A stretch of 61,306 bases of DNA, counting the filler. It is 10 parts of 10 records of this genome, joined end to end, with 100 filler letters (N's around TTAATTAATTAA, not from the genome) between each part and the next. Parts side by side here need not be neighbours in the genome. Positions count along the whole stretch, not along the records: positions 44,905 to 52,283 come from SRR7504441_2263; 9 more parts are not named here. One strand, given 5' to 3'. The position numbers were made by a program, and so were the translations under genes. This document shows positions 3,001 through 57,432 of this stretch, in pieces (position 1 is the first letter of the stretch; each line of letters opens with the position of its first letter). The notes under the pieces are model-generated. The model saw only the letters and a list, made by a program, of their open reading frames with translations. It ran no database searches and was not told where the DNA came from.

Positions 3001-4978
3001 CTTCTCGTTTGAAACCAAACGCAAAAGAAAAAGTGCCGAAGAGACTAAGATGATAGAGATCGAAGAGATTGCCTTCTCACCTGAAATGCTTCGGCAAATG
3101 ACAAGGTCAGTAAGTGCATTGACATTAATACGCACTTGGTGATCCATCGTAACATGTGGAATTCAGGTTGTGCAAGGCAGCCTACACGCCAGAGCTGTAC
3201 AATGATGATGTCAATCACAATGGCCGTCACTGCTCTCCAACGCTGTGTCCAGACTTGCGTACCAGTCACTGCTTCACTGGACGTGATCACGTCAACCACC
3301 GTGGCTTGTTCAAGAGTAAAATCTCTTTGTTTGCTGCTCTCACCACAGATCAGCCGCTTGACGGTAATGCAGTTATCTTTGAAAACCCCGCCCATCAGTT
3401 GGTAGGCTCAAAGAACGCATCAGAGCAAAATTACACCAACCCCGCCAGCAGCCATCAATTTGTAGTTACTTTTAAAGGGACAAAATCGAGCGCGAACGTT
3501 GTAACAGACCTCAAGACGGCCCAATTTGAGTACCCGTTCATGGACTATAATCGTGGAAGATGCAAGCTCAAGCCGCGTCTGAACGGCTGTCCGATTGATG
3601 AACAGCCTGCGATGTACGTGCATAAGGGGTTCTACGAGTTGCTTCACTCGAATGCCTGGCGGCTTATGGGACAAAAACATAACGATCGAAAGTATGCGAC
3701 TTTCGGGTGCCCCAGTAGCGAAGAAATGCATTCTCCCACACACAACGATGATGAGGAGGATGGCTATTCTTATGCGTCTTATTTTAAGAGCAGGAAACCA
3801 GAGAGTGAAGCATTGCATCGCATCTTAGAGTCTAAGCTGTTCCCCAGGATCGCTGCAACGAAGATGGCAGACATGTGCAAAGACGACAGAGCCAGTGCCT
3901 TGGACAAGATGTCTGACATCGACAGAGTTCATGTACAAGAAGCGTTGGCAGAGATCGAGAATGAACCGACAATGAAAGAAGGGACCCGAAAGATCGAGTT
4001 AATTTTTGCAGGGCATTCGCTCGGCGGTGCGCTCGCTTTGTTGATGGCGTTCGAGGTGGGCAGAAATGAAACTAGTGCGCTTGAATGTTCTCTTTAGGTG
4101 AGTTGCTACCTCGGCCAAAGTCGAAGCGCTGTGATCAATGGCAAGCTGAGAGACAAGATGGAGAATATTCTCAGGCGAGTGAGCAGTGATGAAGTCGAAG
4201 ATCTTGTGGTTGCGCATTTGTGTAAGTGGAATGGGATCGAGTTTCACTTGCGATGCCTTACGGTCGGCCAGCCCAGGATTGGCTGTCGGGTCATGGCAGG
4301 CGAGCACAGCGCTTGCTTGCGTGACTCGAGTTGTGCTTTTGCAGACCAAATTGACAAACATCTGCGGGATTACTGGAGAATCACCAACGAAGGCGATCCT
4401 GTTCCTATGGTGAGGCTCTCATCTCTGGATTGATATGATTGTCGTCCATTGCGCAGATTCCCGGGAGATTTAACCTAACCCATCGCATACCACGGCTGTA
4501 CCTGGGCAACAGACGATACAGCCACGCTGGTCGCAATGCGCACCTCAAGTTTGGAGGCCAGGTGCTCCGATACCATAATGATATGACCAGTTCTGATGCT
4601 CTGCTAGGTGGTGTTTGACCCAAAACACTTTGAGAAGGGCATGTACGTAATGGATACGCATCATGGAATCACGTACGAGGAATTCACGGTCCGTTCGTTG
4701 GTCCCCAGGCAACCAGTGCTGATTGCCTGAAACAGGAGCAATATTTGAAACATCGGCGCAAGTGGCTGTGGTCCAAAGCGTTGCGGATTGTCCTCTTTGT
4801 TATACGGCTGAGGAAGGAAATGGCACAGAAGTACGGTCCAGCTGTTCAGGGCTCTGCAGCGGAAGAGCCTGTTGAAGCGCTATCCTATCAATACTCGAAC
4901 ACCGACTTTGACCGCTTGCAACAGACTCTGAAAACCTCTGCAGCACCTGAAAGTCTTGAAGTCGTCGTTGATCATTGA
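98..4978 (+). CDS. Multi-exon polytopic membrane protein with C-terminal class 3 (DAG-lipase-like) lipase domain
   Basis: Consecutive + strand ORF pieces joined by short introns. Several hydrophobic TM blocks between about 360 and 2720, followed by lipase-3 motifs: VVTFKGT, VHKGFY, nucleophile elbow GHSLGG (4011-4028), ITNEGDPVP, and a late His (THHG). Some 5' exon junctions are ambiguous and the start codon is uncertain. Confidence 0.7.
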
Positions 4979-6156: not shown

Positions 6157-6256
6157 NNNNNNNNNNNNNNNNNNNNNNNNNNNNNNNNNNNNNNNNNNNN
6201 TTAATTAATTAANNNNNNNNNNNNNNNNNNNNNNNNNNNNNNNNNNNNNNNNNNNN
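6157..6256. other. Artificial contig spacer (N-run with TTAATTAATTAA). Identical spacers at 11167-11266, 18966-19065, 28443-28542, 35328-35427, 41671-41770, 44805-44904, 52284-52383, 57333-57432
   Basis: 100-nt block of Ns around a 12-mer that gives stops in all six frames, repeated nine times. Confidence 0.98.
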
Positions 6257-11166: not shown

Positions 11167-11733
11167 NNNNNNNNNNNNNNNNNNNNNNNNNNNNNNNNNN
11201 NNNNNNNNNNTTAATTAATTAANNNNNNNNNNNNNNNNNNNNNNNNNNNNNNNNNNNNNNNNNNNNATAAAGCTCCTCCATCGGCGTAAAAAAAAATAAA
11301 GCTGATTAGCGACCCGATTAGCACATCTGACATGATCTGAGTTCTACCTATAAATAAACTATAAATAAGCCAGATTCTTAACCAGATTCTACTCGTAGAT
11401 CTAGGTGGCGATACAGGGCACATCCTATAGGTAAACGCATCCCCGGCAATGAATCGAGTATATATGTGGTACTAAAATAACATGTCGAAAGTATTCTCTC
11501 GGACGAGAGATCTAATTCTTTAAAGTAGTTAAATGCGTCACGGCTGGTACATAACTAGTTAGTACAATCATCATACACTGATTGTACCCAAGTGCCAACA
11601 GATTACCAACAGATCAAAGCGAGTGAAGTTACGAGTGAAGTGTGACGAATCACAATTGTGTGATCAATGCACATACTGCAATGGCCAATGTACAATGTAG
11701 CCACATCTATGGAAATGCAGCTTCTCCTAGTAC

Positions 11734-16526: not shown

Positions 16527-18676
16527 ATGGCGGAGCAGCCAGGTGAGGCAGTGGAGGTGGCGCCCACACTGTGCGGGCCTACCAACCTGCGGCCGACGTG
16601 GGGCTGGTCCACCAGCCACGTGATCCCGCCACCCGCCGAGCTGGTGCCGGTCTCCCCCCAGCGATGGGCCGACGCGCACGACCGGCTGCTCTCCACCGCC
16701 CAGTCGTACGAATGCGGCGCAGTCCAGGTGCCTCGCCCTCCGGCCGCCCGAGACAGCCCGCAGGCGGTGGTGGACGCTGAGATCGCCCGGGACGATGGCG
16801 AGACCCTCCGCCGGCTGCAGGTGTGTGCTGGCGGGGCGGGGCGCTGAGCGGCGGTCCAGCTTAAGCTGTCGAATGACGAGCTCGGGAACCGGATCCAAGT
16901 GACCGAGGAGCTCAAGCAGGTGCCGGCCGAGCGAGGCCCGGCTGAGCGGGCGCAGCTGCTCGAGGCGGCGATCAGGCGGGTGCGGGCCGAGGCGGAGCGG
17001 GTGCTGGAGGAGCAGCGGGTGATGGAGGCTTGCGTGACTGATCACTCGGTGCCCGGGCCGTCGGCGGCCGGCCGAGCCAGGGGTGGCAGAGCAACTGGAC
17101 AGCGATCGGCCGGGTCCAGGAGCTGCGCAAGCAGCGGCCCAAGAGGGAGCGCGTGCATGACTCAATAGACCACCAGATCAAGGCAGCCGCCCCGGGCGGC
17201 CGGCGCGCGAGCGGGGGCGGCAGCTGTACATCCGGGACCTGGAGGCCACGCTCTACCCGACCAGGATTGCCAAGCTGAAGAGCAGCCACAAGCAGCTCAC
17301 AGCACTGCTCAGCCAGATGGATCAGGACGTGCGCTGGAAGGGCGCTGCAATCCAGGTCGACTCCACGGTACTCCAGTCGGCCCAGCCCAAGAAGGCGGTC
17401 GAGCGGCTGTCCAAGCCACGGTGCCCCGAGCCGGCTGCCCGGCTGAGCCCAGCTTGGCAGATCCGGCCCGTCTCGCGTGCCCAAAGGGACTTTCGACACA
17501 GTGCGGGTCGCTCCTACTAAGGTCCGGACCACAATCAAAACCCCGCAGGCCAATCTAGAGAATGCGATGAAGACGCTGCACAGCTGCCAGAAGGGCATCC
17601 AGGCCGCCACTCAGCTGCGCCAGAGCTGCTTGGAGTACCGGATGGCCAGGATCGATGTCGCAGCGCTGGGCAAGCAGCGGCTGATTGATGAGATAGCGGT
17701 GGTCAAAGATGCGCTGGCCAAGCGCGTGCAGGAGCTCGAGCTGCAGGAACTGGAGGTGCAAGCAGACCTGGAGGCCGACCAGGCCGAGATCGCAGAGCTG
17801 CAAGGCAGCATCCCGCAGCTGCTGGCGCCGCTCCAACTTGCTGAGACACGACTGACCAAGCGGGCGCAGAGGCCCGTGCCTGAACGGGTCAGAGACACAG
17901 CTGAGAAGGCGCTCGAGAATGAGGTGCAGGACCTTGGACTTTCGGTTGCCAAACTCAGGAACAGGAAGAAGAAGCTGGAAGCAAACTGCTTCAGGCTGCA
18001 AAGCCTCAAGAAGGAGATTCACCAGGATGCGGAGTTCAAGAGGCAACACATCCAAGTGCAAGAGCAGTGCTGGGACTTTCTCACCACCGTCCAGCAGGCA
18101 GCAGTGCTGCCTACGTCGGAGCAAGCCGTCGCAGACCTGCGGAGGCAGCTTAAGAATAAGTTCCGCACGCATGGCCAGCTGTTCTACGCCTCAGACCAGA
18201 ACCTGGATGGCAAGCTGACCGTGGACGAGTTCGGGAGAGGTGTGGCCATGCTCGGACTCAAGCTCACTGCGCATGAGATCCGCGTGCTGTTTGAGTCTTT
18301 CGACTACAACGGGGACGGCAATCTCCAGTATTCGGAGCTGCAGCAGATGCTCACCGGCACGCAAGACACGGTCGCCAAGCCGCGTAGGGTCCGGGAGGCA
18401 AGAAGGGCGACCCCGGATGAGGATCTCCCGACGGAGCGGACTGTTGCGGACTTGCAAAAGCAGCTTAAGGCCAAGTTCCGGACCCAGGGCACGCTGTTTT
18501 ACGCTGCAGACGCCAATCGGGACAACAAGCTGACCATAGAAGAATTCGGCCGAGGTGCGTTGATGATGGGAATCAGGCTTTCGACAGTCGAGTTGCGTGA
18601 ACTGTTCAACTCATTTGATGTCAACATGGACGGTTCGCTACAGTGGTCGGAGCTCAAGAAAATGCTATCATCTTGA
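16527..18676 (+). CDS. Tektin-like coiled-coil protein with four C-terminal EF-hands
   Basis: Two tektin-type motifs ([12 protein letters not shown] about 17125; [12 protein letters not shown] about 17861). EF loops [36 protein letters not shown] and [12 protein letters not shown]. Confidence 0.7.
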
Positions 18677-19387
18677 GGTGTCCATCTACTGATCATGAGG
18701 TACCACTCGGCCGAGTATCGGCCGAGTATGTAGTAGGATGGTAACTTTTTTCGCGTGCAACCTAGCGTGCACTAGCGTGCTACCTGTGTGAAACCCTCAG
18801 TACTCATATAAATTCTGATAAATTCTGACAAGTACGTACGCCGGAAGTTCGAACGAAATCCGTTCTACGGATCTGGAGCCTCCACCGGCGGGCTAGACCC
18901 GGGCCAGGCGCTGATCCAGCGGCATGCCGTCCATTGCCGCCACCCGGTGCTGCAGCCCAGAGAACNNNNNNNNNNNNNNNNNNNNNNNNNNNNNNNNNNN
19001 NNNNNNNNNTTAATTAATTAANNNNNNNNNNNNNNNNNNNNNNNNNNNNNNNNNNNNNNNNNNNNCCTAAGGCCGGCCAGGAATTCACCGCCACAAGATC
19101 TACACCATAAGAGGTGGCCAGCCTAACGCCTACGACGCCTACCGGTAGTGGACCGAAGACGCGAAGACAGCTGCCTGACTCTTGATTTTATCAGTCGAGT
19201 CGTCAGTCAAAAGCTCGTGAGTCTTCGGTTTTTGAGTGGGAGAGTCCCGCGCAACGACCCTGTTCAAATACCTCAGGCATGCCCAGCCCGAGCCCGTGGC
19301 CCGGCCTAGACCCGCCGCCAGCCGCTGTTGCCCGATCTTGCCCGGCCCGCGCGGCGTCCTGGTTTGCTGACCCTTTGGCCTTGCAGC

Positions 19388-28146: not shown

Positions 28147-28739
28147 TCGCATAGTCACCAGGCAACAACGTTTAATTCAGATCGTGCCCTTGATGAGTGG
28201 GGGGGCGCGGTCTATTTGTGTTTCCAGACCGATGGTGCCAACTGAACTTTGACCAGCGGGGAAGCCCCAGGATTCCAGAGATAGTCTCATAATATTTGAT
28301 AACAGAAAAAGACCACCAAGTCACGCATGGTGTGTGCAGAGTTGTAAATCGTTTTAATGATTAGTTACTCTACTAAACCGCTTACTGAAAAACTGCCCTA
28401 CAACCATTAGCTATCATCAAGGGGCGGGTGTGAGTACACCCANNNNNNNNNNNNNNNNNNNNNNNNNNNNNNNNNNNNNNNNNNNNTTAATTAATTAANN
28501 NNNNNNNNNNNNNNNNNNNNNNNNNNNNNNNNNNNNNNNNNNAGTGACACTTTGAGTCCCAAGCTACTGAATTGCATCGTGTGGAGTACTTACGAGTAAC
28601 ACACCGGTTTCCGTGTCGGGTCGACTAGGGGTCGACAGCCATTTGCCTAGTTGTGACGGTGTAACGGTGAGTGATTGGGTATGCTACATAAACTTATCCA
28701 TAATTAAAAGTTATATTTAGTCTATATTTAGTCAGCTTG

Positions 28740-34780: not shown

Positions 34781-35430
34781 CTGGTCAGCGCGCGTCCGGC
34801 CTACATCACCAGCCCGGGGGCAGGGGCGATCAGATGCGGGGGCGATCAGAACGAACAGACCAGTGCTCGGAGGTCAAGGTCAGCAAGCCAGGCAAGCCGG
34901 ACCGGACCCAAACTTGTGAGCTGACCAGACCGGACTGGACGGGCCTGTTGGACCGGATCGGGGGCTCAGGAATCGAGAGCCGGGGCAAGCCGATCCGCCC
35001 GGGAGCAAGACCCGTTGGCAGGGGGGGCGAGCCGATGGCCCACGGGAGCGCGTCCGAGACCGGATGACCAGAGACCAAGATTTGGGCCCGACCTGGTGAT
35101 CAGGACCCGAATGGAGGCCTAGACCGCCGCGGCTCCAGGCTCTCGCAAACGAGGCGCGGGCCGGCGCAGGGGCGAGCCGCGATGAGCAGGCCGGGGCCTC
35201 AGAAGCGCCGGCCGGGGTGGAACGCCACCCATAACAGCCGGCCAGACCGGGCGGGTGCGCACGGTTACCGGCATTTGTTGCGGGTTGTGGTGGACCAGGT
35301 GGCTCGGGTTGCAGAGCAGGCAAGCCCNNNNNNNNNNNNNNNNNNNNNNNNNNNNNNNNNNNNNNNNNNNNTTAATTAATTAANNNNNNNNNNNNNNNNN
35401 NNNNNNNNNNNNNNNNNNNNNNNNNNNGCC

Positions 35431-41669: not shown

Positions 41670-41770
41670 CNNNNNNNNNNNNNNNNNNNNNNNNNNNNNN
41701 NNNNNNNNNNNNNNTTAATTAATTAANNNNNNNNNNNNNNNNNNNNNNNNNNNNNNNNNNNNNNNNNNNN

Positions 41771-44700
41771 ACCCGTGTGGTGGGCGACCTCTCTGAGCCC
41801 GACAGGGAGACACTTGCCGGTGGGTCGGCTGTCGTGGTGGTTGACCCCATCGCCCTCCCCGACCTCGCGATGATCGTCTTGAGCTCCGGGAAATGGGTGA
41901 TGGTGGACCTCGAAATGCTGGAATTTGCGGGGAGCAAGTCCGACGAGGATCCCTTTGCGCTGCAGACCGAGTTCGTAGGGGACCCGTTGGCAGCTTGGGT
42001 GGTACCGTTGCCTCATGGCGACGCCGCCCTCGTGGTGGTGCACCGGGACAAGGCTGCTGATTGCGCAGCCGGGTGGTGCATCGCACGAACCGTCCGCCGC
42101 CGCGGGGAGGCACAAATCACTTCCAGCCTGACGTTGGACATGGCGTACGTGGACAGCGACTTGGCCCTTGTGGCCGATAGCGTCGTCATCTGTAGCCCCG
42201 CGGGACAGGTCACCGTGTGGCGAGGAGTGCTGGACACCGACGCAACTGTGGTCGAGGTGGTTCCCGCGCACCGCCTCCCAGGGGTGCCCGGCGGGGGGTT
42301 CCGCATGGTCTCCACCCACGGACGCTTTGCCATCCTGTTGGATCTGATCGGCGAGTCGGGAGAGCTGCACCACGCCGCGGCGCTGGATGTGACCCAGCCT
42401 GCGGTCTTGGCGACAGTTACAGATCTCAAGCCTACGGGGTGGAGCCAGGAGTCGAGGGACAACCTCGATTGGTGGTCCAGGGAGAGGGCGTCACTCGAGC
42501 GTCATTTCGGGACTCTCGTCCTCAGCCAGCTGTACAAGGTGTCGGAGGCGTGGTCCGCCACGGCGCGAAGGGCACCATCCGACATTGTGCGCGTCCCGAC
42601 GTGGGTCGGCTGGTGGGCCAACGACGGTGTGCCGGTCGGGCCGCTCCTCCCCGGCGGCCAGTTGTATGCCTCCGCACCCAGGGCGCATGGAGACGGGGTC
42701 AGCCTGTCCTACATTCGGCGCACCGACGACAGCGTGGGCAAGGACCGGCTGTACCTGAAGGTCGACCTTACAAGCGACGAGCTGCCAGCTGGCGCGAACT
42801 TGCGCGTGCGAGCTGACAGCGCTCACCCCGAACCCGACGTGACCCGCGTTGCACTCGGATCTGGAATGCACGAATGGCCGCCGACCCTGCTGATCCCCCT
42901 GCGGGGTGAGTTCGAAACTGTCTACATGGTCAGATCCGATGGGGGAGGGTGGTCCGGTGTGGTGCGCACCTGGATCAGGCTCGAGTGGCACTGGAAGCAG
43001 TCCGTCGTGCTGTCAGCTGTGCTGTCGATCGGTTCGGCATCGGCAGTATCCACAGACTCCATGCAGCGCAGGGCGATGTCACACGCCACGAACGCGAATT
43101 CAGGAGGCGGGACGGTGGTGTTCGCCCCCTCTGAGCTAAATCTGCCCGGGATGGTTGCCAATGGTGGGGAACCAGACGGAGAAGATGAATTATTGCCGGA
43201 TGGTTCCGACCCCAATGTCGACAACCAGATCGACGATACAGACGACAACGAAGCAATTTCAACCGTATGTGAGCCAGGCGACGGCGAAAGTACCCCCGTG
43301 TATTTTCGCGAACCGAGTTGCGACAACCTACCGGACCCCACCTATCCAGCGGCAACGGAATGGATTGAACAGCGGAAGATTCCAACTGGGCTCGGGATGT
43401 GTGCAGGAAGGTTCTGCATGTCGTTCGGCTCGTTGTACGAACTTTTGGAGGATCCATACAACTCTATTGGCGACGCACTGCTGTACGATGAGAGACTCCC
43501 TTACGCCCCAAACCCTGTGTATAGGATTTACCGCGAGTCCACGCCCCCGTTCTTTCACCTAGACGATCTCCGCCAATGGCACCGCACGGACCGCGACAAC
43601 CAACCGTTCAACTACGAAGGCACGAGCCCGACAGGCGAGATGTGCGCTCTCCAGTACAACGATACCGACCCTCCCCCCTGCCACACAGGAGATTCGGGAC
43701 ATTCGGATGCTTGTAGCCACTGGTGCAACCCCCGTACCCTGACCTCTTTCGGATCGGGGGATAACCGCGGCGTGTGTGTCTACGAACAAACCGAATGCAG
43801 CGAACCCAGTTATCAATATGGGCAGGCGTATTACGACGTACACGTTAGTTTAAATGCCCGTGAGTGGGCAAAGGTTCGGTACGCAAATGGTGTCCTGCTG
43901 AAGTCTGTCATCTCAGCCGAACACCTGTCAAATGGTTACGCGGATGATTATTCTGAGTACCTGGGGGCGTATGGTAAAGCATCTAGGATCGAAATCCCCG
44001 GAATCGAGGTGAAGTGGGAGTTGGACAATGGTCCGTTCCACGTCGCTCAAGTAGCACTGTCGATAATATGGAAACCTGCCCCCAGCGAGACTAGATGCAC
44101 TAATTGGTTTGCCAGAGCTGGGGAGACCCACAAGTTTCACATCAAAGGGAACACTCCCATCACAGAATACACGGTGCGGACACCAGAGGGGACAATCAAG
44201 ACATTCTATACACACGAGAGCGGGAGCTTTCATCGACAGGTGACCTGCAACAAACATGAAGACGGGTTCCACTGCAAACTTCCAATAGGCCACAAGGCAC
44301 CTGTAAAATTGACATATACGAAGATGGAGGGCGGTAATGTGGTCACGCATGTGGACAAGGTTGAAGGTGTCGGTCGAAACATGTTCAAGACTCTTACAGG
44401 CTACTGGTGGCCACTAGAGGCACCCACGAAGGAATCGTCCTTCAATGCACATTACTGGAATCGATGGGGATTTAAGGCAAATCATGGCACAAGTCTTAGT
44501 CGTCTAAAATCGGTGCTCCTGTCGACTAGTCAGTCCTTGCTCATAACAGACGTTGCCCCAGTAACTCGGTATCGGTGGCCTTTCAACACGTTACGCATTT
44601 TCCGCCGCTGCCCCCGAATAGCCGCGGTCGGGCCCGTGAATCTACCAGGTAAGCTGGACGTATGCCGGACGGTGTACGAAGACCCCCCATACCCCGACCC

Positions 44701-44804
44701 AACGACATCGCCTATAAACTCCCCATACTCCTCCCCCGTCCCCGAACCCCGGCTGTCGGAAGAAACCTCCTTTATGATACGCCTCAGATCGGAGGCAGAT
44801 GAAA
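41771..44804 (+). CDS. Large intronless orphan ORF spanning the entire contig (both ends open)
   Basis: More than 1000 codons without a stop; acidic linker and Cys-rich middle. No family recognised. Confidence 0.6.
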
Positions 44805-45036
44805 NNNNNNNNNNNNNNNNNNNNNNNNNNNNNNNNNNNNNNNNNNNNTTAATTAATTAANNNNNNNNNNNNNNNNNNNNNNNNNNNNNNNNNNNNNNNN
44901 NNNNCGACCGGTGGCCCGATCACAACGGCCGCGAGGCTCCGGATTGACAGTTGGGCAGTTGAACACATCTCCAGCCGGTCGGGACACGCTGGGGCTCCGG
45001 TGGGGATCACGTTGGGTGCCCTCGCCCGCCAAAGGA

Positions 45037-48000
45037 ATGGCTCGTGCTCGCCCGTTTTCGGAGGGCCAGCTGCTCGGATGGCGGCTCGGGATCACGTTGG
45101 CCTTCGGGCTCATGGCGCACTACGGACTGATGCGATGCGAGAGCGGGCGGGATGTGGTGTGGAATCTGAGCAACGGTGTGTTGTGACTGATCCCCGGGCT
45201 GACCGGCCGGCCCAGCGATCCGGTCCTACCTGGTGCAAGACCCGCTCGAGTCTCGCGGGGTGCTCTGGCAGGTCGGTGACATGGTGGACGCCCTGGGTCT
45301 GCAAGGCCCGCTTCTGATCCTCGGATACAAGTGGGACCGGCGGGCCTATTTCGAAGGGATGCGCCAACGGACCGGCAAAGTATCACCGTTCGTGAGCGGC
45401 GTGGCGCTGCACGACTACGCCGAGGTGGCCCAGCTGCTCGAGAGCCCCACCCAGCGGCGAGGGCCCTTCTACGGCGGCCGCACCCCTTCAAGCTCTTGCA
45501 TGGTGTGGCTGCGGGCCGTATAGGCTCACGGCTTGCAGGCCCATTCCAACTTGATGTTCGCGAGCACCGGCCCCGAGAGTCGAGCCGTCCGCCAGTTCCT
45601 CGTGGATGCTGTTCACGGGCTCCATCAAGGCCACGCGGGCTTCTCGGAAGACCTGCTCCCCGAGCCCCCGGTGAACCGCCCCCGCTGCCGGTCAGTCTCC
45701 TCACTCGGATGCAGTGCACCACCCTGCAGTGCGGCAGCCAGACGGACCAGATGGCCCGGTGCGGGCGTGGGGCGGGCTGGCGGGATTGGCGGGCCAGTGA
45801 GCTCCTTCGTAATTTATGGTTCCGGTTGCTGGGGCAAGTGCCTGGGCTCGGAGTTATGGACGATCTGATGCTCTACAGAAAGGAAGGGATCAAATGTCTT
45901 TTGCTCTCATCAGTTTCACACGGGCTAGTCTCAGCCGCAAGGCATCGGCCGGGCCCGAGACCCTGCCTGATCCGCGTGGCAGCACTCTGCAGATCCGGAG
46001 CATCGCTCTCGAAGCAGCCAAGCACACGCCGGTGGGGCGCAAGCTGTTTGAGCGGGCCATGGGAGAGCTTGGCAAGTCAACAGACGAGGCGAACGATCTG
46101 GTCATGCAGCTGGTGATGCTCGGTGCTCCGGGAGCTCAGGCAGGGCAGGTCGACGCGATCCTCAAGTATGGAGCTATCGACAGCAGCAACTGGGCCGAGC
46201 AGACCATCACCCGGATCAGGAGCGACCCAGCGCTGTATGTGCCCATGTGGGAGCGAGACTCTAAAAGCTTCCTCCTGGAGAGTCCGCCGCCTCCGATCTG
46301 GGTAGTGTGCTGAGCGACAGGCCAGGCGCACGGCTGCAGCCTCCCGTGACCAGCGTGACAACCCTCCTGGAGGCGCCGCGGCGGTTTGACGTCGGCTCTG
46401 GGTTCCGGGGCACCGGCTTTGCCTCTGTCGAGCTTGCTGCCAACACGACGGTGAGTCGAGAGCTCGGGCAGTGGCTGAGCCTGGATCAGGTGACGCTTGT
46501 GCTTCAGACAGCCAACCAAGACCCGAAGGTGTTTGGCGGGACCGCAAGGTCGCTGGCCCAAGCCAGAATGTTCAACCCGTCTAGAGGCCAAGACGAGTTG
46601 AACCAGATCTTAACTTTCAACGGGGTGTACAGCAGAGTGGAGAAGGCTGAGTCGCTACGAGGCTGCATCGCGACTAAACTCTCAATGGACCTTGTCAAGA
46701 AGCTGGTCGACAGGCACTTGCCCTCCAAGAATGCGCAGCCGATCGGTCTTTCGTCCGAGTCTGACTGGCTGCCATCAGAGAGCCGACTCTCGGATACGAT
46801 TTATTCACTGCAGGATTCTATGCTCAATAATGAGATCCCTTTTGGACTGCTGATGGGCATGTGCTTGTTTGCGATCTTGTTCGTCAAATTTGCGCTCCAG
46901 TACGGCCATGCGACTGGTCGTTACTGCAGCTACCTGCTGGCCATGGTCGCGTACTGTATTGGCAAGCTGCTCCGGCGAGACATTATCTGCCACCATGCAG
47001 TGCCCTTCATGGCCAGCGCTCAGGCCGAGATCCTCTACATTGTGATGGCGCACGTACGAGACCCGCGCTCGCTCAAGAAGCTGGACATAGGTCCCCGACT
47101 TGTCCAGCCCGTGCCAGGCATGCCGTTCCGGATTGCCTACGTGCTCTACTTCCACATTGTGCTGTTGGGCCTCGAGACAATGACCGATGACTTTCCATTC
47201 TACAACAACCTCTCGGAAATTCTCATGTGGCCGGCAGGATTTGGTCTCATCTTTGCGTTTGGTCTTCTGGCTTCGCGGGAATCACACAGTGGCAATGCTG
47301 TGAGTCTCAAGCTTGGCATGGCTGCAGTGGTGATCCAGTTTCTCAACAGCATCTGGCCGCTCTATGTGCAAGACGGCCTGTATTACCAGCTTTACTCGTG
47401 CCTGGCCGACATGGTAGTAATGCCAATTGTTATCAATGCGTGCAAGGCTGCTGATGATCGTGTGTCCGGATGGGGTGCTATGTATGTCGATACTGAGGAG
47501 CTCGCAGACCCCCGGCAGAAGAAATTCTTCAGGAACGACAAGCTGCTCAAGTTTGCTGCCGACGTGGCGGAGAAGCACAGACAGGAGCTGGACGAGGCAT
47601 TCGACCAGCCGGATGACGCGAGCAGGAACAAGAAGATGCTTCAGATCATGAATCGTCTATTGTTTGACCAGTTTGATGTCAACAAGGACGGCTACATCGA
47701 CCAGCGTGAGCTCTACAGTGTGCTCGACTCGATGGGCTTTGACCAAGGAGACGAGCATGTACAAGAGCTGATAGCTGAAGCTCTCGAGAGACAAAAGCTC
47801 TCGAGGACCTCCACTCGGGACTCTTTGGTTGCGCACTTGTCTGGTGAGAGCCCTGGTGGAAAGACAGGCCAGAGAATCGACTACGACTCATTCTGTCGCA
47901 GCACCTTGGTGACAGACTTCCTGCAGAAATTCAGCACGGCAGCCGCAATTACGAAGCAAGTGGCCAACACCCGGGCTGTCAAGCTGTGGTGGTTCATTAC

Positions 48001-50058
48001 TGGTGCCGCCGTGTTTCTGCTTGTGGCGATGGCGGCACCTGTCTTTCACCAGGCGGTTGCAGGCGGCACACTGTGCTTCTTTGAGTGCGATCTGGTCAAA
48101 TACCCTCAGGCTTGTTCAGCTGGTGCCACAAATCTGGATACAATCGATACGCACACGCGCAGTCTCTACCGAGTTCTGAAGGTTCTTGCGAGCCCGAGAA
48201 ATGAAAGCGGCGGGATTGACTTTACAGACCCGGCAGTGCTTGGTACCGCGGCGACTGTTCCCACCTACAAGATGACCCTGCCAAAGAAGAATCTCGTCTA
48301 TTGCCCCAAAAGCTACGGGGTCCGCGTTCCGGACAGCTGCACAATTCCGACCAAAGGGGACAACACTGAAGGAATCGCTACCCAGTTCTCCACAGTGTTG
48401 TTTGAGGCGCTCCGGAACAACATATTCTATCCGCTCAGCGACATTTCGACCATGTGGCCGGAGCCTGAAAAGGCGCCTGCTATTCTTGAAGCAGGGAGCA
48501 GAGCGGAGCTCAAGATGCTTGAGCTCTACCCCTGGACAGAACTTCAATCGGATGAGGCACTCTCAAGGTTTGCATTCGCTGGAATCGCAGCTCATCGGAT
48601 GGAGCGAGTGGAAGGCGATGGCGAGATCAAATTCAGGAACGAATGGGCTTGGATGAGTCAGTTTCAGACTCGCCCAGGCTTTGAGCGTTATGGGGCAAAT
48701 GCATACTTTGATGCGAATGGCACTCTGGTCAAGATGTTCTGGTCGGAGATAGGTCGCAACATCACGAAAGGCGATCCGAATTGGGAGCATGTCAAGTGGG
48801 CCTTCAAGTAAGCTTTCAACTATGCAGTGACGAAAACTCATACATGTATTGGCGCAGGTGCACAGTCCTATCGGGAGCGACTGTTAAGGATCATTTGGTT
48901 GGGGTGCATTTTATGGCTTCAAACTTCATGACGACTTCCTCAGTCGAGAATTTGAGTCCTGACCATCCCATCCGGCGGCTTCTCCGACCACACACGTGCG
49001 CATTTTAGCTCTTATGTGCCTGTCGACAGTTGTCGTAGCTGTGTGCGTTGTGACTGTGTCGTAGCTGTGTCGTAGCTGTGTCGACAGAGATTTATGTGTC
49101 GACAACCCACTGACGAGGGCTAAATCTGAGGTTCCATGCATAGGTTCGGTGCGATTGAGATCAACCTCGGAGCTGTGAAGACTCTTGCTGTCGAGGGTGG
49201 CACCGCACACAGGTGCCCTGGCTTGCTCACAGCAGTTGAGCATCGTCTATGTGCCAGGGCGAGCTCTCTCACTTGGAAGGGGCTTCAAGATGCCCTAGCT
49301 GCAAGCTATAAGCTGAACAGATTCGTCAACATTCGTGCCATCATGAAGATGACCAAGATGGATAGAGTAATTGCAGACGATGAGACCCGATCGCTGGACC
49401 AGGAACTCTACCCATACGGCCGAGATCACGAAGAATTTGTGGGTGTCGTTCACAAGCTGGTTAGCTCCTACGTCGATGTGTATTATGCTACAGACGCTGA
49501 TGTGACCAGCGATCACGAACTCGCCCAATTTTGGGACGGTAGCGCCCTGATCTGCTCTCCACCTGTGACTTCCTTGCTGGCAGGGCTTCATGTGCAAGAA
49601 CCGTACTCCCTATTCCCACGTTTGACTGACAAGGGGATCTTGAATGATATCTTGACAACCTACATCACTCTTGTCACTGGCATACACAACCAGGTGGGCC
49701 AAACCCCGGCTGCTCTTATTGCTGGGGTTTGTAGGTTGGCAACGTTGCTGATTATCTCGTCGATCCGACCTTTGCGGCAGCTAAGATTCGACCTGGCGCG
49801 ACTTCCTCCGACATACAAGCGACATTCCAGGGTCTCAATATTGGCCTCATGACTTCTCAGCTCACTCCTCGGCTGCTGAATGATTGGAAGCATCTGCTCC
49901 TCGAGGATGAGCATCTCGGCAAGACTCGACAGATCTTTGACGAGTTCCAGAGCGATCTCAGGCAACTTAGCGATGAAATCGATGAACGGAACGAGAAGCG
50001 GCGGTTCCCGTGCAACGCGTTCAATCCCAAGACCATGGTGGCCGCGGTTAGCATTTGA
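45037..50058 (+). CDS. Fusion protein: CYP74-clan-like cytochrome P450 - ~7TM - EF-hand - TM - lipoxygenase (about 1457 aa)
   Basis: 13 predicted introns (45176-45215, 45503-45538, 45671-45714, 45759-45797, 45942-45982, 46113-46148, 46282-46325, 46451-46489, 48808-48857, 48996-49143, 49213-49257, 49539-49583, 49694-49734) leave 4374 nt of continuous frame. P450: ESARLQPPV, ANQDPKVF..FNPSR, TFNG...RGCIA. LOX: DHLVGVH, HPIRRLLRPH, HNQVGN and C-terminal AVSI. Confidence 0.85.
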
Positions 50059-50288
50059 GCTCACTTACTGCAGCTCAGAATTATCACATGCAACCTAGTT
50101 GCATTTTTACTTGCAATGGCAAGCCGATTTTACAGTACGTTTAGGCAAATATAGTACATGACAATCATGCATAATAATTGTATTCAAATGCACATGTTTG
50201 TATCTGAGGATAGCGCCGTCTTTATTTTGAATCTATGAGCGCACTCATGATGGGCCCCAATGTAGACCCCGTGCATGAATTTAAAAAT

Positions 50289-52283
50289 CTATGAGTTGCG
50301 TCGAATCACCTCGTCACTGAGCGCCTTGGCTTCAGCAGCATAGTTGCGGTCTTGGCGCTCAGCAGGCCGCATCATTGGCTGCCCCTGCGCACCAAGCTGG
50401 GCAGGATGATAGGTAATATGAATGGGAAGAGCTTCGCGCGCCCAAGCTGGTGGCGCTACCAAATCGTGCCCTGTCCCCACTGATCAGCAGACCATTTCCA
50501 AGCAGCTAGGCGAGCTCACCTCGATACTCACGTGGTGGCGCGCGGCCTGAATGTGGCCGTTGCTCCCCCAGAGAGTGGAGCGTCCTATCTACCCTGCTGT
50601 GCAGCTCTCCGATTGTCATCTTAGGAACTGGCTTCATCACCGGATGGACAGTGCGGTAAACAGGCTGAGGAATAGCCTCGGGTTCAACAGGTGCCCTGGC
50701 TGGCATGTCCAGAACCGTACCCATGGGCTTGACAGGAATGTCCCTATACGTGGTGGCCATCCCAAAGTGCCATGGCCTCTCATTGATAGGCAGGTGGTGG
50801 CTGCGAATGCTCCCGTGCTGCTCGACAGATTTCTTGAAGGCTGGAGCGGTCACCGGGTCCTTCTCCTCGAAATGCGGATCATCCACCACATAGTCCTTAG
50901 CAACCGGTTTGGGCGACAGCGAACGCGATTGGCTGCACACACCCATCAGGCTCCTGCATGCACTTACTGCGGCACCTGCTTTTGCCCTTCCGGCCCTTCC
51001 TCGTCTGCTTCGTGCTACTCAGTACCTCCTTGAATTGAAGCTTGGACTGCGAGATCAGATCACTCTGCGACAACCCGCTGCCCTTGCCAAACAGCTCTGC
51101 CGCCACTGCGGGGTCCTGGGTCCAGTCTGAACGCGGCAGCTCGCCATCCTCGAGGTCGATGTCACGCTCCTCGTACGCAGCAACATCAATCGCCTGCTCT
51201 GGTCGTTCAATGGCCTGACTCATCTCCTCTGATGTTAGTCCGAGTAGGTTGCTCAGAATAGCCACCCCATCATGCCCCACAGCCCGAAGGCTGCTCGACA
51301 TGGCAAGCAGCAGGCAGCTCTTGGCACACGCCGTAAACTGCTTCATGTCGAGCCCACCGCTCCGTCCGGCTCCGGCCCCGCCAGCGCTAAAGTACTCCAG
51401 GCGCACTTGCTGCACACCTACGAGCCCCGGGGAGATACCAAACTCGGAGAGGAAGTGCATCATCTCTGTCAGGTTGATTCTCTTGCCCTGCTCCGCGATA
51501 TCGTCAAAGGTGGCCCGCCTGTCGGCACCAGAGTCAGCCTCGCTGTTGCTGGCGGCATTCACTTGGAAGCTGTCGAGCGTGCGTGGCGCAGGAAGATCCG
51601 ACGCAGCACGAGATTGCGACTCATCCCGCCCGGGTGTACTGCTTCATGTGGGGCAGGCACACGCTCACGGCGGCGCGTTGCACGGCTGCTGCGGTCCTGC
51701 CACCGAACCTTGGATGAGGCTGGCACTACGGTTTCATCCACACAGCCGCTCTGCAGGGCGTTCAAAGCCACCTGGAGCCCAAACAGGTCAGGAGCTACCA
51801 CATGATAAGCGCACCTCGCATAATTTGGCCTCTGCGTGTTGTACAGTGTACACATCGCTCATCAGGTAAAGTGCATGCCTGAACTGCGCTGCCACGCGCC
51901 GATATTGTGCATCATGCGACGAGATTGCTTGTACGAGAGCAGGCTTGCCAGGAGCCTGGAAGGACCACTGGACTATTTTCTTGTGGAAGTGACGAGGCAC
52001 TTGAGGTATCAGCTTGGCCGCCATTGCCTCCAAGTCTTGCACCAGCCTCGACTGCGGATTTGCGAGTGGCGGAGGTTGCGGGTCCGTCGGAGACGGCTTG
52101 AATTCCTCGGGGTCTGCAAGCGGGACTCCGATCTCTGGTACAGGGCTCGAGGGGCTCGGGGCAGAGGTGCCGCTCCACACAGGCTCCACGGAGGCATGTC
52201 CCTTGTGAGCAGGCACTTCAACTTTGGGCTGCTTTTCCTTTTTGGCCCGGTATGCCAGTCCTCGCCTGTACTGCTCGATGCTG
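50289..52283 (-). CDS. Hypothetical multi-exon protein with degenerate EF-hand-like helices, 5'-truncated
   Basis: Chain of - strand ORFs (51788..52216, 50897..51562, 50506..50946, 50289..50480) separated by intron-sized gaps; RINLTEMMHFL and LDMKQF segments. Confidence 0.45.
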
Positions 52284-52525
52284 NNNNNNNNNNNNNNNNN
52301 NNNNNNNNNNNNNNNNNNNNNNNNNNNTTAATTAATTAANNNNNNNNNNNNNNNNNNNNNNNNNNNNNNNNNNNNNNNNNNNNGAACTCCTCTAAAATAG
52401 GGATAAACTATTAAATTGCGTAACATTACATGTAAGCTTAAAATCATGTACGGTACGATAGTACCAATCATGACGAGTATTGAAGTTCTTGGCCGTTGCC
52501 TCATCATTGCTCGATTACACACCGA

Positions 52526-56599: not shown

Positions 56600-57432
56600 C
56601 GTTAGTGCATGGTTGTCTCAGTTGACGTCGACTAAGCTTAGACTTCAATGTTTGAGGAGGAACAACGCCTGAGCGGGAGCAAGTAGATTCGTTTTATTTC
56701 TGTTCGGAGCTGATGAACCGGGAAGAGAGGCTTCTAGCGAGGGCTTTATAATCATGTACTATAGCGATGGTGCTAGACCCTTGACTAGTACCATCGTTTA
56801 CTTTGTTTCTAGTTTGTAACAATCATTACAACAAGGAGCAGCCGGTAATGAACAAGTCTACATTCAGTCATTGAAGGGCTACTGGTAGAAAGCTAGGGGC
56901 TAGCCTCCACGTGTCCAATGATGTGCTCAGGCTACAATTCCAGGAATCACCCCGTCGCGCGCTGCACGCTTTATGCGCAACTTTCCCTTGTCTTCATTCG
57001 CCGTACGCACCAGTTGCTCTCTTTGCATTCACATCTGCTGTCTGCCACATTCTGAACATCCACGAAATTAAATTCCTCGTTGACTGGCCCGGTCATGCCA
57101 GATTCCCTCGGTGATCGAGCTTACACCTGCGGTCGGTGAGATCGGCCAGCACTGCCGCGTCTAGATCGAACGCCCACATGTACAGGTGGCGTTGACCCAT
57201 GTCCAACCGAGCGAGTGGTGCAAGTCTTGGCGTTGGGGTCAACCTAACTCTAACGTCCTGATCAGCTGACGGTTGGGGGCCAGTGAGTGTGTAGCTCACC
57301 AGGGCAGGCTTGACTCGGGCATGTGTGACGAGNNNNNNNNNNNNNNNNNNNNNNNNNNNNNNNNNNNNNNNNNNNNTTAATTAATTAANNNNNNNNNNNN
57401 NNNNNNNNNNNNNNNNNNNNNNNNNNNNNNNN

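Follow-up and report, generated by a model that had tools for sequence, protein, structure and literature searches.

Can a lipoxygenase (LOX) and a partner of the cytochrome P450 type be carried by one integral membrane protein, and on which face of the membrane would the two enzymes stand? The question is raised by a gene at 45037..50058 on the plus strand of a 61,306-nucleotide stretch of DNA (the window, meaning that whole stretch), where it sits on a contig of 7379 bp (44905-52283). The original prediction, made by a model from the sequence alone, described a receptor-like linker of about seven transmembrane (TM) helices, an EF-hand, and one more TM helix between a P450 and a LOX, with both enzymes luminal or extracellular and the EF-hand cytosolic. 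The computational analysis reported here makes it very probable that the gene encodes a single protein in which an N-terminal anchor, a P450 fold, a seven-helix membrane bundle, an EF-hand loop, an eighth helix (TM8), a stalk, and a LOX domain follow one another. That this is the membrane core of one multi-exon protist gene, with the enzymes outside and the EF-hand in the cytosol, is the favoured reading as a whole and is held to be moderately probable.

Gene structure and splicing

The gene model was built by tblastn with the relative P0047, combined with an enumeration of splice sites scored against a family hidden Markov model (HMM). It runs from an ATG at 45037 to a stop codon at 50056-50058 and specifies about 1473 amino acids free of stops, ending in ...AAVSI. 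The open reading frame (ORF) is open back to the start of the contig at 44905, so an additional upstream exon is possible. The model contains at least 11 GT-AG introns of 36-148 nt, with ambiguous boundaries for two of them, near 45671-45750 and 45928-45959, and once spliced it scores 1406 bits against the family HMM.

Splicing of the LOX part is documented by RNA. All five of its introns (48808-48857, 48996-49143, 49213-49257, 49539-49583, and 49694-49734) occur as GT..AG joints in RNA-library contigs X1 and X8, from two metatranscriptome runs, and one 1223-nt RNA-library contig begins at 48049, just past TM8, and spans three of them. The gene is spliced, and its transcript is represented in RNA libraries between 48049 and the 3′ end.

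Two of these RNA-confirmed introns, 49213-49257 and 49539-49583, are 45 nt each, in-frame, and free of stops, and for that reason are not visible in a list of ORFs. They served as positive controls, at about +20 bits each, in a screen of 228 in-frame GT..AG candidates across 46331-48049 that were scored by the HMM gain on their removal. In correction of the original prediction, a stop-free, in-frame intron of 39 nt (GTGAGT...CAG; 46451..46489, plus strand) is hidden in the P450 part, as judged from a gain of 18.2 bits on its removal, at a place outside the RNA-contig coverage. In the TM and EF-hand parts, the best gain was at most 4.9 bits versus about 20 for real introns; candidates in the first part of the TM7-TM8 loop (47462-47580) gained 2-5 bits and are neither accepted nor excluded. 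Because no intron-like gain was found there, the end of the P450 domain, eight helices, the EF-hand, the stalk, and the start of the LOX domain make up one exon, 46490-48807. The gene thereby shows how stop-free in-frame introns of 39-45 nt hide inside long ORFs, where they are read through as 13-15 extra residues, and further long ORFs of the source organism may conceal such introns too.

A family with the same plan

A HMMER search with the linker alone over 1.84 billion protein representatives returned 42 matches at E≤0.001. Ten of these were retrieved (P0002-P0006, P0009, P0016, P0018, P0022, and P0025), matching on the TM block or on TM8 and the stalk; they carry TM8, stalk, LOX, or TM-block parts. 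In nearly all of the remaining 32, the best stretch lay over the EF-hand part, and one of two that were scanned is a multi-EF-hand protein. A search with P0004 as query added P0044-P0050, of 1252-1458 amino acids (eight additional full-length relatives fall in this size range), and a metagenome scan added nine loci, including P0051, a 1632-amino-acid intronless ORF on a 12-kb contig. At least 20 related sequences are known.

Full-length members have a common plan, consisting of an N-terminal anchor, a domain of about 450 amino acids, a TM block, TM8, a stalk that starts with xLCFx...C, and a LOX domain ending in Ile, and relatives hold this entire architecture in single ORFs on transcript-sized contigs of 3.9-12 kb. 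Among the members is a transcript from the dinoflagellate Gymnodinium smaydae (a EukProt entry); the database names of the others are limited to 'hypothetical protein', 'Lipoxygenase', and 'Ca2+-binding EF-hand superfamily protein'. A scan of prokaryotes with two peptide patterns, covering one genome for each of 185,579 species, gave 41 matches and no relative. With the linker as query, a word-indexed search returned nothing at E≤0.001, and with P0047 the same tool found only three proteins.

P0051 (L007:4824-9719) also carries an insert of about 140 residues, rich in Ser, Arg, and Ala, in the TM3-TM4 loop and a 56-residue insert between TM5 and TM6; both fall in loops predicted to be cytosolic. 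Contigs of a DNA run, X2, match pieces of the fusion gene (45000-49016); identity is 95-99% in five of six, and 22 substitutions were listed. This points to a near relative, at the level of strain or species, in a different aquatic sample.

The seven-helix membrane bundle

The membrane core lies at 46835..47485 on the plus strand and was delimited by hydropathy, an AlphaFold2 model, and structural comparison with VIA-align. Kyte-Doolittle hydropathy gives seven peaks plus one, and AlphaFold2 gives seven helices of 21-34 residues with block-mean predicted local distance difference test (pLDDT) scores of 82-97. These helices are TM1 at 46835-46897 (model residues 82-103), TM2 at 46907-46969 (107-127), TM3 at 46979-47059 (131-157), TM4 at 47120-47182 (178-198), TM5 at 47201-47278 (205-230), TM6 at 47288-47362 (234-258), and TM7 at 47384-47452, whose helix runs on to 47485 (266-299). 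Connections between helices are 3-7 residues long except for the TM3-TM4 loop, of about 20 residues, with pLDDT 55-60. The linker model as a whole, from an alignment of 25 rows, has a mean pLDDT of 70.9. Folding used alignment A4, to which fragments had been added and which has fewer invariant columns than A2; its TM block was acceptable on inspection.

A VIA-align search of 48,161 chains returned 7TM folds in 50 of 50 rows. The top match was ACER3 (6yxh, 6g7o), with Z 12.6 and a root-mean-square deviation of 3.5 Å over 202 residues (model range 63-296), followed by 47 entries for G-protein-coupled receptors (GPCRs; Z 10.8-12.1) and two designed GPCR-like folds (Z up to 12.4). Sequence identity in these matches is 5-12%. 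The original prediction had proposed a Foldseek check of the TM block, and this gave no significant result: against the PDB, the linker model had 0 matches at E≤0.001 and a best E-value of 3.5e-3. The 48 rows listed were mostly GPCRs, with ACER3 second and one non-7TM flippase.

Sequence comparison gives the bundle no other family. Pfam at E≤10 returned noise only for the TM block (Gly_transporter 0.15, DUF6404 0.18) and no 7TM family; in the ESM Atlas, the TM block reached 0.75 at best, and residues 520-800 of P0004 had no usable match. Across HMMER, Pfam, and the ESM Atlas, no sequence relative of the 7TM block was found outside the P450-7TM-LOX family. Within that family, the TM and linker part has a single column conserved in at least 10 of 11 relatives, and no His, Asp, or Ser motif is conserved in the helices, GPCR motifs not having been searched singly. 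Nor are metal-binding His, Asp, or Ser columns like those of alkaline ceramidase and the CREST hydrolases conserved inside the helices. Some features do recur: TM6 has a WP, TM5 and TM7 contain prolines, and an Asp follows TM7.

The count of about seven TM helices plus one is thus borne out by hydropathy, by the AlphaFold2 helices, including that of TM8, and by the 7TM folds found with VIA-align. The label 'receptor-like' holds for shape, given the GPCR matches, but not for kinship, given the tie with ACER3, the lack of a Pfam match, and the lack of a conserved polar motif. By the calibration of VIA-align itself, that tie lies within the range of chance for helical bundles, and it indicates a common shape, not kinship. 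On the model, the linker is best described as a compact, seven-helix up-down bundle of GPCR or ACER3 shape that would belong to neither family.

The EF-hand pair

A helix-loop-helix EF-hand is found at 47615..47737 (plus strand) by Pfam, by PDB matches, and in the AlphaFold2 model, in which helices at residues 343-360 and 372-381 stand on either side of the loop. The loop itself, DVNKDGYIDQRE, occupies exactly 47675-47710, where the original prediction had placed a canonical EF loop. EF loops of 12 residues follow a rule of oxygen ligands at positions 1, 3, 5, 9, and 12, with Gly at position 6. The loop has D1, N3, D5, G6, I8, D9, and E12, in agreement with this rule, and is a predicted Ca2+ site. 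Three Pfam models were considered (PF13405, PF13202, and PF13499). EF-hand_6 scored 26.1 bits on the whole exon and 27.4 on a 173-amino-acid piece (cut-off 25), and EF-hand_5 scored 27.3 on that piece (cut-off 25.9); the pair model EF-hand_7 scored 27.7 there, under its cut-off of 30. A phmmer search of the PDB with the EF part matched 333 distinct sequences at E≤1 (best 3.4e-7), through alignments that take in both the EF loop and the exiting helix. The 60 matches listed are of calmodulin, centrin, troponin C, and myosin light-chain types, or fusions bearing them.

A second, degenerate loop, GGKTGQRIDYDS, lies at 47855..47890 (plus strand), with RIDYDSF, the partner noticed in the original prediction, at 47873-47893. 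In a column-by-column alignment it corresponds to the canonical loop DKDKNGTIEFSE of P0047 and to the loop of P0006. With G, K, G, and S at positions 1, 3, 5, and 12, it has lost the set of Ca2+ ligands, and the pair has at most one working loop.

Within the family, the EF-hand is confined to 3 of the 20 sequences that cover the TM7-TM8 loop, namely the fusion gene, P0047, and P0006; the other 17 have short loops, L004 being judged by alignment only. In P0047 the pair lies at residues 786-842 and scores 30.1 bits with EF-hand_7 and 30.3 bits with EF-hand_8. P0006, a fragment, has an EF-hand under the cut-off (E 0.0034), but the loop DKNKDGKIVFSE is present. Of the two loops of the pair, it is the first that is canonical in the fusion gene and the second that is canonical in P0047. 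In a tree built on 640 C-terminal residues from 14 sequences, the fusion gene groups with P0047 (support 99/97), and P0003, which has a long TM7-TM8 loop without an EF-hand, joins these two next (100/100). By alignment and tree, the EF-hand is a derived, late insertion of a sub-clade and not a family-wide feature.

The N-terminal anchor and P450-fold domain

The N-terminal hydrophobic anchor (TM0), WRLGITLAFGLMAHYGLM, is present at 45079..45132 on the plus strand, in keeping with the original prediction, and aligns with the strong TM0 of relatives. In the family, TM0 has a mean hydropathy peak of 2.15 and a median crude insertion energy (dG) of 0.5; that of the fusion gene is weaker, at 5.5. 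Several relatives have 39-104 residues ahead of TM0, with Arg adjoining the helix.

The domain that follows, at 45133..46747 (plus strand), is interrupted by introns and was assigned by profile searches of the PDB and by an AlphaFold2 model of a relative. Its ExxR motif, ESAR, is split across the intron at 46282-46325, and its Cys pocket, at 46652-46666, reads SLRGC where the family has APRGC. In the alignments, the two motifs coincide with ESAR and APRGC of the family and with PRKC of the P450 BcmD, at a predicted haem site. A profile of four sequences matched 27 PDB chains at E≤10, with a best E-value of 0.0014; 24 are named P450 or P450-like, which leaves BcmD, PtmB, and an EryCII-type 'isomerase'. 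The alignments pass through the ExxR motif, the NRD..vFG strand region, and the PRxC pocket. The N-domain of the relative P0046 was modelled with pLDDT 85.8 and a predicted TM-score (pTM) of 0.83, and a Foldseek search with this model found 500 or more matches at E≤0.001, the best at 2.8e-8, all listed rows being P450s. Guayule allene oxide synthase (AOS; 3dan) had the highest TMq among the listed rows, 0.56, and was not outstanding by E-value.

Individual sequences respond poorly to the general family model. Pfam PF00067 (p450) reached 10.7 bits at best (E 0.22, cut-off 22.8), in one of four N-domains scanned, and gave no match at E≤1 in the gene's own exon pieces. Searches of the PDB with the C-terminal piece of the P450 domain and with the stalk gave matches at the level of chance only. 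The fusion gene keeps 46 of the 54 family-conserved columns of its P450 part. Taken with the predicted structure of the relative, the profile matches indicate that the N-terminal domain genuinely adopts the P450 fold.

TM8, the stalk, and the lipoxygenase domain

TM8, LWWFITGAAVFLLVAMAAPVF, at 47984..48046 (plus strand), has a Kyte-Doolittle value of 2.13 and is part of a 60-residue helix (432-491) in the AlphaFold2 model; across the family, its mean hydropathy peak is 2.38 and its median crude dG 0.9. The stalk from TM8 to the LOX core, at 48047..48547 (plus strand), bears five Cys residues after TM8 (P0001 590, 594, 603, 666, and 678). Two Cys pairs can be recognized in it. One, at 48074-48076 and 48113-48115, is invariant in the family (14 of 14 aligned sequences) and, on that conservation, is a probable disulfide; the other, at 48302-48304 and 48338-48340, is specific to the clade. 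An eighth helix followed by a Cys-rich stalk had been foreseen in the original prediction, as had the absence of a PLAT domain, and both are upheld: neither PLAT nor any other Pfam family was found in 47990-48420. Bacterial-type LOXs do not require a PLAT domain.

The LOX catalytic domain extends over 48548..50055 (plus strand). In LOXs, iron is bound by an HxxxxH motif, by a further His downstream that has an Asn or His close to it, and by the C-terminal Ile. Here the HxxxxH lies in DHLVGVH and is followed by GIHNQVGN and a C-terminal Ile, the same columns being invariant in the family. Pfam PF00305 scored 29.3 bits on one exon (E 4.1e-7, cut-off 23.6), and 30-63 bits in relatives. The family LOX profile matches PDB lipoxygenases at E 4.3e-21, the best being a PLAT-less Pseudomonas enzyme, and 92 of the 96 family-conserved LOX columns are kept in the fusion gene.

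Topology and competing explanations

Seven crossings and a return through TM8 place the P450 and LOX domains on one face of the membrane and the TM7-TM8 loop, with its EF-hand, on the other. Sidedness was judged by the density of Lys and Arg in 12 sequences, with long loops cut to 15-residue flanks. The density is 0.148 on the EF side (157/1060 residues) versus 0.073 on the enzyme side (61/835) and is higher on the EF side in all 12 sequences; the Fisher p of 3e-7 overstates independence because the sequences are related. Summed over the 12 sequences, Lys and Arg number 46 in the TM3-4 loop and 34 in the TM5-6 loop, and 8 in the flank before TM1, 6 in the TM1-2 loop, 8 in TM2-3, 7 in TM4-5, 3 in TM6-7, and 12 in the flank after TM8, versus 34 Asp and Glu there. 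In relatives lacking the EF-hand, the TM7-TM8 loop is 15-49 residues long and holds 3-9 Lys and Arg. The basic EF side, the basic N-terminal flank and TM7-TM8 loop, and the Cys pair on the LOX side together favour an N-terminus inside, P450 outside, EF-hand inside, and LOX outside, and with its orientation taken from the charge bias, the bundle is N-out and C-in, as in GPCR-type 7TM proteins. Cys density as a test of sidedness gave no signal. On this charge pattern, exoplasmic enzymes and a cytosolic EF-hand are likely. The sidedness given in the original prediction therefore stands as far as the 7+1 parity and the Lys and Arg bias carry it, but is weakened by the marginal hydrophobicity of TM3 and TM7.

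Several results weigh against the favoured reading. The up-down arrangement is itself drawn from helix lengths, short loops, and 7TM structural matches, and VIA-align, by its own calibration, often gives Z scores below about 13 to helical bundles that are unrelated. Near TM1-TM3, the three short loops hold too few charges to fix parity. Median crude dG values are 7.9 for TM3 and 6.9 for TM7, versus 7.3 for the top 1% of soluble-domain windows, and if exactly one of the two did not span the membrane, P450 and LOX would stand on opposite faces. The N-glycosylation sequons named in the original prediction (NES, NGT, NIT, and NLS) are present but carry no signal of sidedness, sequon density in the 12 sequences being 0.0036 in parts predicted inside versus 0.0037 outside. 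RNA-library contigs are absent over 45000-48048, which takes in the TM, EF, and P450 parts. The EF-hand is missing in 17 of 20 family sequences, which means that Ca2+ control is not the core function. The two nearest relatives, P0047 and P0003, have no P450 Cys ligand, with PRAAFG and AASAQFG in place of APRGC. Because of this, and because SLRGC replaces APRGC in the fusion gene, the P450 domain may be losing catalysis in the EF-hand clade and becoming a non-haem or non-catalytic module, although the fusion gene itself, unlike P0047 and P0003, retains the Cys.

The same evidence bears on the alternatives. In a mirror topology, TM0 would be N-out as in microsomal P450s, both enzymes would be cytosolic, and the EF-hand would be luminal. 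Luminal EF-hands occur on P4H-TM, a membrane-anchored dioxygenase (PMC7948501), and this precedent keeps the arrangement alive; the cytosol is the usual place of eukaryotic LOXs and P450s, the gene's own TM0 is weak, with two Lys and Arg on each flank, and the sequons give no vote for exoplasmic enzymes. Such a topology is nevertheless unlikely in view of the twofold density of Lys and Arg on the EF side in every sequence, the basic TM7-TM8 loops of EF-less relatives, the acidic flanks before TM1 and after TM8, the invariant Cys pair on the LOX side, and the extensions with adjoining Arg ahead of TM0 in relatives, and a role for the EF-hand as a sensor of stored Ca2+, in the manner of STIM or P4H-TM, is equally unlikely. 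Broken parity, with TM3 or TM7 re-entrant or interfacial, would leave the fusion as an anchor for enzymes on opposite faces, with no channelling between them. It draws on the insertion energies at the edge of the soluble-domain background and on a family-mean hydropathy peak of only about 1.2, over three columns, for TM3. It is made quite unlikely by the AlphaFold2 model, in which TM3 (27 residues) and TM7 (34 residues) lie within the bundle at pLDDT of about 87-96, by the superposition of the whole block on solved 7TM proteins over about 200 residues, and by the TM6-TM7 hairpin, whose turn is only five residues and whose flanking loops are basic.

A true receptor, in which a GPCR-like sensor of an oxylipin or of a prey or grazer cue would control the enzymes or signal to the cytosol, is very unlikely, even though 47 of the 50 VIA-align rows are GPCRs and the N-out, C-in arrangement with a large outside domain ahead of TM1 recalls adhesion and class C GPCRs. 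The non-receptor ACER3 ranks above these GPCRs at Z scores usual for helical bundles, no Pfam 7TM family appears at E up to 10, and the TM and linker part has one conserved column and no conserved polar motif. Oomycete GPCRs fused to catalytic domains are known, but these bigrams bear cytosolic C-terminal enzymes, and neither lipoxygenase nor P450 is mentioned in the paper on them (PMC6033456). An artefact, by assembly chimerism or by a gene model that fuses neighbouring genes, might be suspected in a window of 10 short contigs with spacers, with two ambiguous intron boundaries and a gap in RNA coverage upstream of 48049. Such an error is exceedingly improbable, since one open frame, 46490-48807, runs from the end of the P450 domain into the start of the LOX domain, relatives carry the entire architecture in single ORFs, and the spliced model scores as highly as it does against the family HMM.

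Proposed mechanism and relation to known systems

Under the favoured reading, with the enzymes outside and the EF-hand cytosolic, both catalytic domains would stand side by side on the luminal or extracellular face, held by a nine-helix anchor. The LOX would form a fatty-acid hydroperoxide, which the P450-fold domain would then rearrange. Hydroperoxide rearrangement of the CYP74 kind needs neither reductase nor NADPH, which makes an exoplasmic P450 workable. The poorly conserved 7TM bundle would serve mainly as a scaffold, perhaps also as a site of lipid access, rather than as an enzyme; it may also pass membrane acyl chains to the LOX, by analogy with ACER3, which binds a lipid chain inside its bundle. 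In the sub-clade only, cytosolic Ca2+ at the EF-hand could shift TM7 and TM8 and hence the position or activity of the enzymes outside, an inside-out control comparable to that of DUOX. Such Ca2+ gating is possible but rather doubtful, and the Ca2+-triggered oxylipin release and the role in defence against wounding or grazing suggested in the original prediction are speculation. The complete scheme of an inside-out lipid-mediator machine, with a 7TM core, an exoplasmic LOX followed by a P450-fold converter, and a cytosolic Ca2+ switch, is more doubtful again. If true, a Ca2+ spike on damage, prey contact, or grazing would lead to oxylipins at the cell surface or in a secretory compartment, in a lipid counterpart of DUOX.

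The closest functional precedent is the AOS-LOX of the coral Plexaura homomalla (3dy5, 3fg1), which likewise joins an N-terminal hydroperoxide-converting haem enzyme to a C-terminal LOX and so places two consecutive oxylipin steps on one chain. The family profile matches the LOX part of the coral protein at E of about 1e-15. That protein is soluble, with a catalase-related haem domain and a Ca2+-binding PLAT domain; here, in contrast, there is a P450 fold, no PLAT domain, nine predicted TM helices, and an EF-hand. The best solved match of the LOX domain, the enzyme of Pseudomonas aeruginosa (4g32, 4rpe; E 4.3e-21), likewise lacks PLAT. It is secreted to the periplasm and works outside the cytoplasm but, unlike the fusion, is a soluble, single-domain protein. 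Fusions of LOX with hydroperoxide-converting haem enzymes are known from corals and cyanobacteria and are soluble, and to our knowledge every LOX described so far is soluble or only peripherally bound to the membrane. To the known pairing of a LOX with a haem-enzyme-type partner, the present family adds a core that is integral to the membrane and receptor-shaped, together with an EF-hand specific to one clade. Proteins of the P450-TM-lipoxygenase kind were not found described in the literature covered, which does not extend to subscription journals, and Table S7 of PMC13440314, on dinoflagellate LOXs, could list such proteins.

Enzymes of the CYP74 clan, comprising AOS, hydroperoxide lyase, and epoxyalcohol synthase, use LOX products as substrates and need no O2, NADPH, or reductase (abstracts of PMC8124189 and PMC6627107). 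The P450-fold domain resembles them in fold only (the 3dan match given above); none is among the 27 PDB profile matches at E≤10, in which the P450s are of bacterial type, so there is no specific sequence link at that threshold, and a CYP74-like activity is a prediction. The closest control logic is that of DUOX1/2, which combine a haem-enzyme-like domain outside the cell with a TM helix, EF-hands in the cytosol, and a membrane core of several helices, and in which intracellular Ca2+ controls chemistry delivered outside (abstract of PMC7794343). The likeness is one of mechanism, and no homology was found. The DUOX core holds haems and receives electrons from a cytosolic NADPH domain, whereas the bundle here has no conserved His pairs and both enzymes are predicted outside. 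With ACER3 and the GPCRs, the bundle has helix number, connectivity, and packing in common, at 5-12% identity; GPCRs are also N-out and C-in.

If the favoured sidedness is true, the gene would encode an integral-membrane LOX with a P450 fold on the exoplasmic face, beyond the reach of a reductase. Oxylipin synthesis in marine protists, including dinoflagellates, where it concerns wounding and grazing, is poorly tied to genes, and the fusion offers a concrete gene, with a transcript in marine RNA libraries and a Ca2+ switch that can be tested.

Other contents of the window

The 10 contigs of the window are separated by spacers of the form N44-TTAATTAATTAA-N44, a six-frame stop linker, at 6157-6256, 11167-11266, 18966-19065, 28443-28542, 35328-35427, 41671-41770, 44805-44904, 52284-52383, and 57333-57432. 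Because they were joined by these artificial spacers, the order of the contigs carries no meaning. The other contigs hold ordinary eukaryotic genes, among them a tektin with EF-hands, ribonucleotide reductase, an SNF2 helicase, actin, and a TMEM131L-like protein. Rfam gave no match over the whole window.

An ORF at 17447-18673 (plus strand) contains a tektin segment (E 4.8e-21) and several EF-hands (EF-hand_5, E 2.7e-21) and may, from these domains, be a Ca2+-binding flagellar protein, from which it follows that the source organism is flagellated. A class 3 lipase exon (Lipase_3, E 2e-11) lies at 3153-4094 (plus strand) on another contig of the same bin. Lipases are the usual suppliers of free fatty acids to LOXs, and no linkage to the fusion is claimed. 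At 41777-44800 (plus strand), an open frame of 1008 amino acids, rich in Cys, Trp, and Tyr and with no Pfam match at E≤1e-4, fills a 3-kb contig. Downstream of the fusion gene, the same contig carries two minus-strand ORFs: one of 248 amino acids at 50897-51643, with no Pfam match, and a second at 51788-52283.

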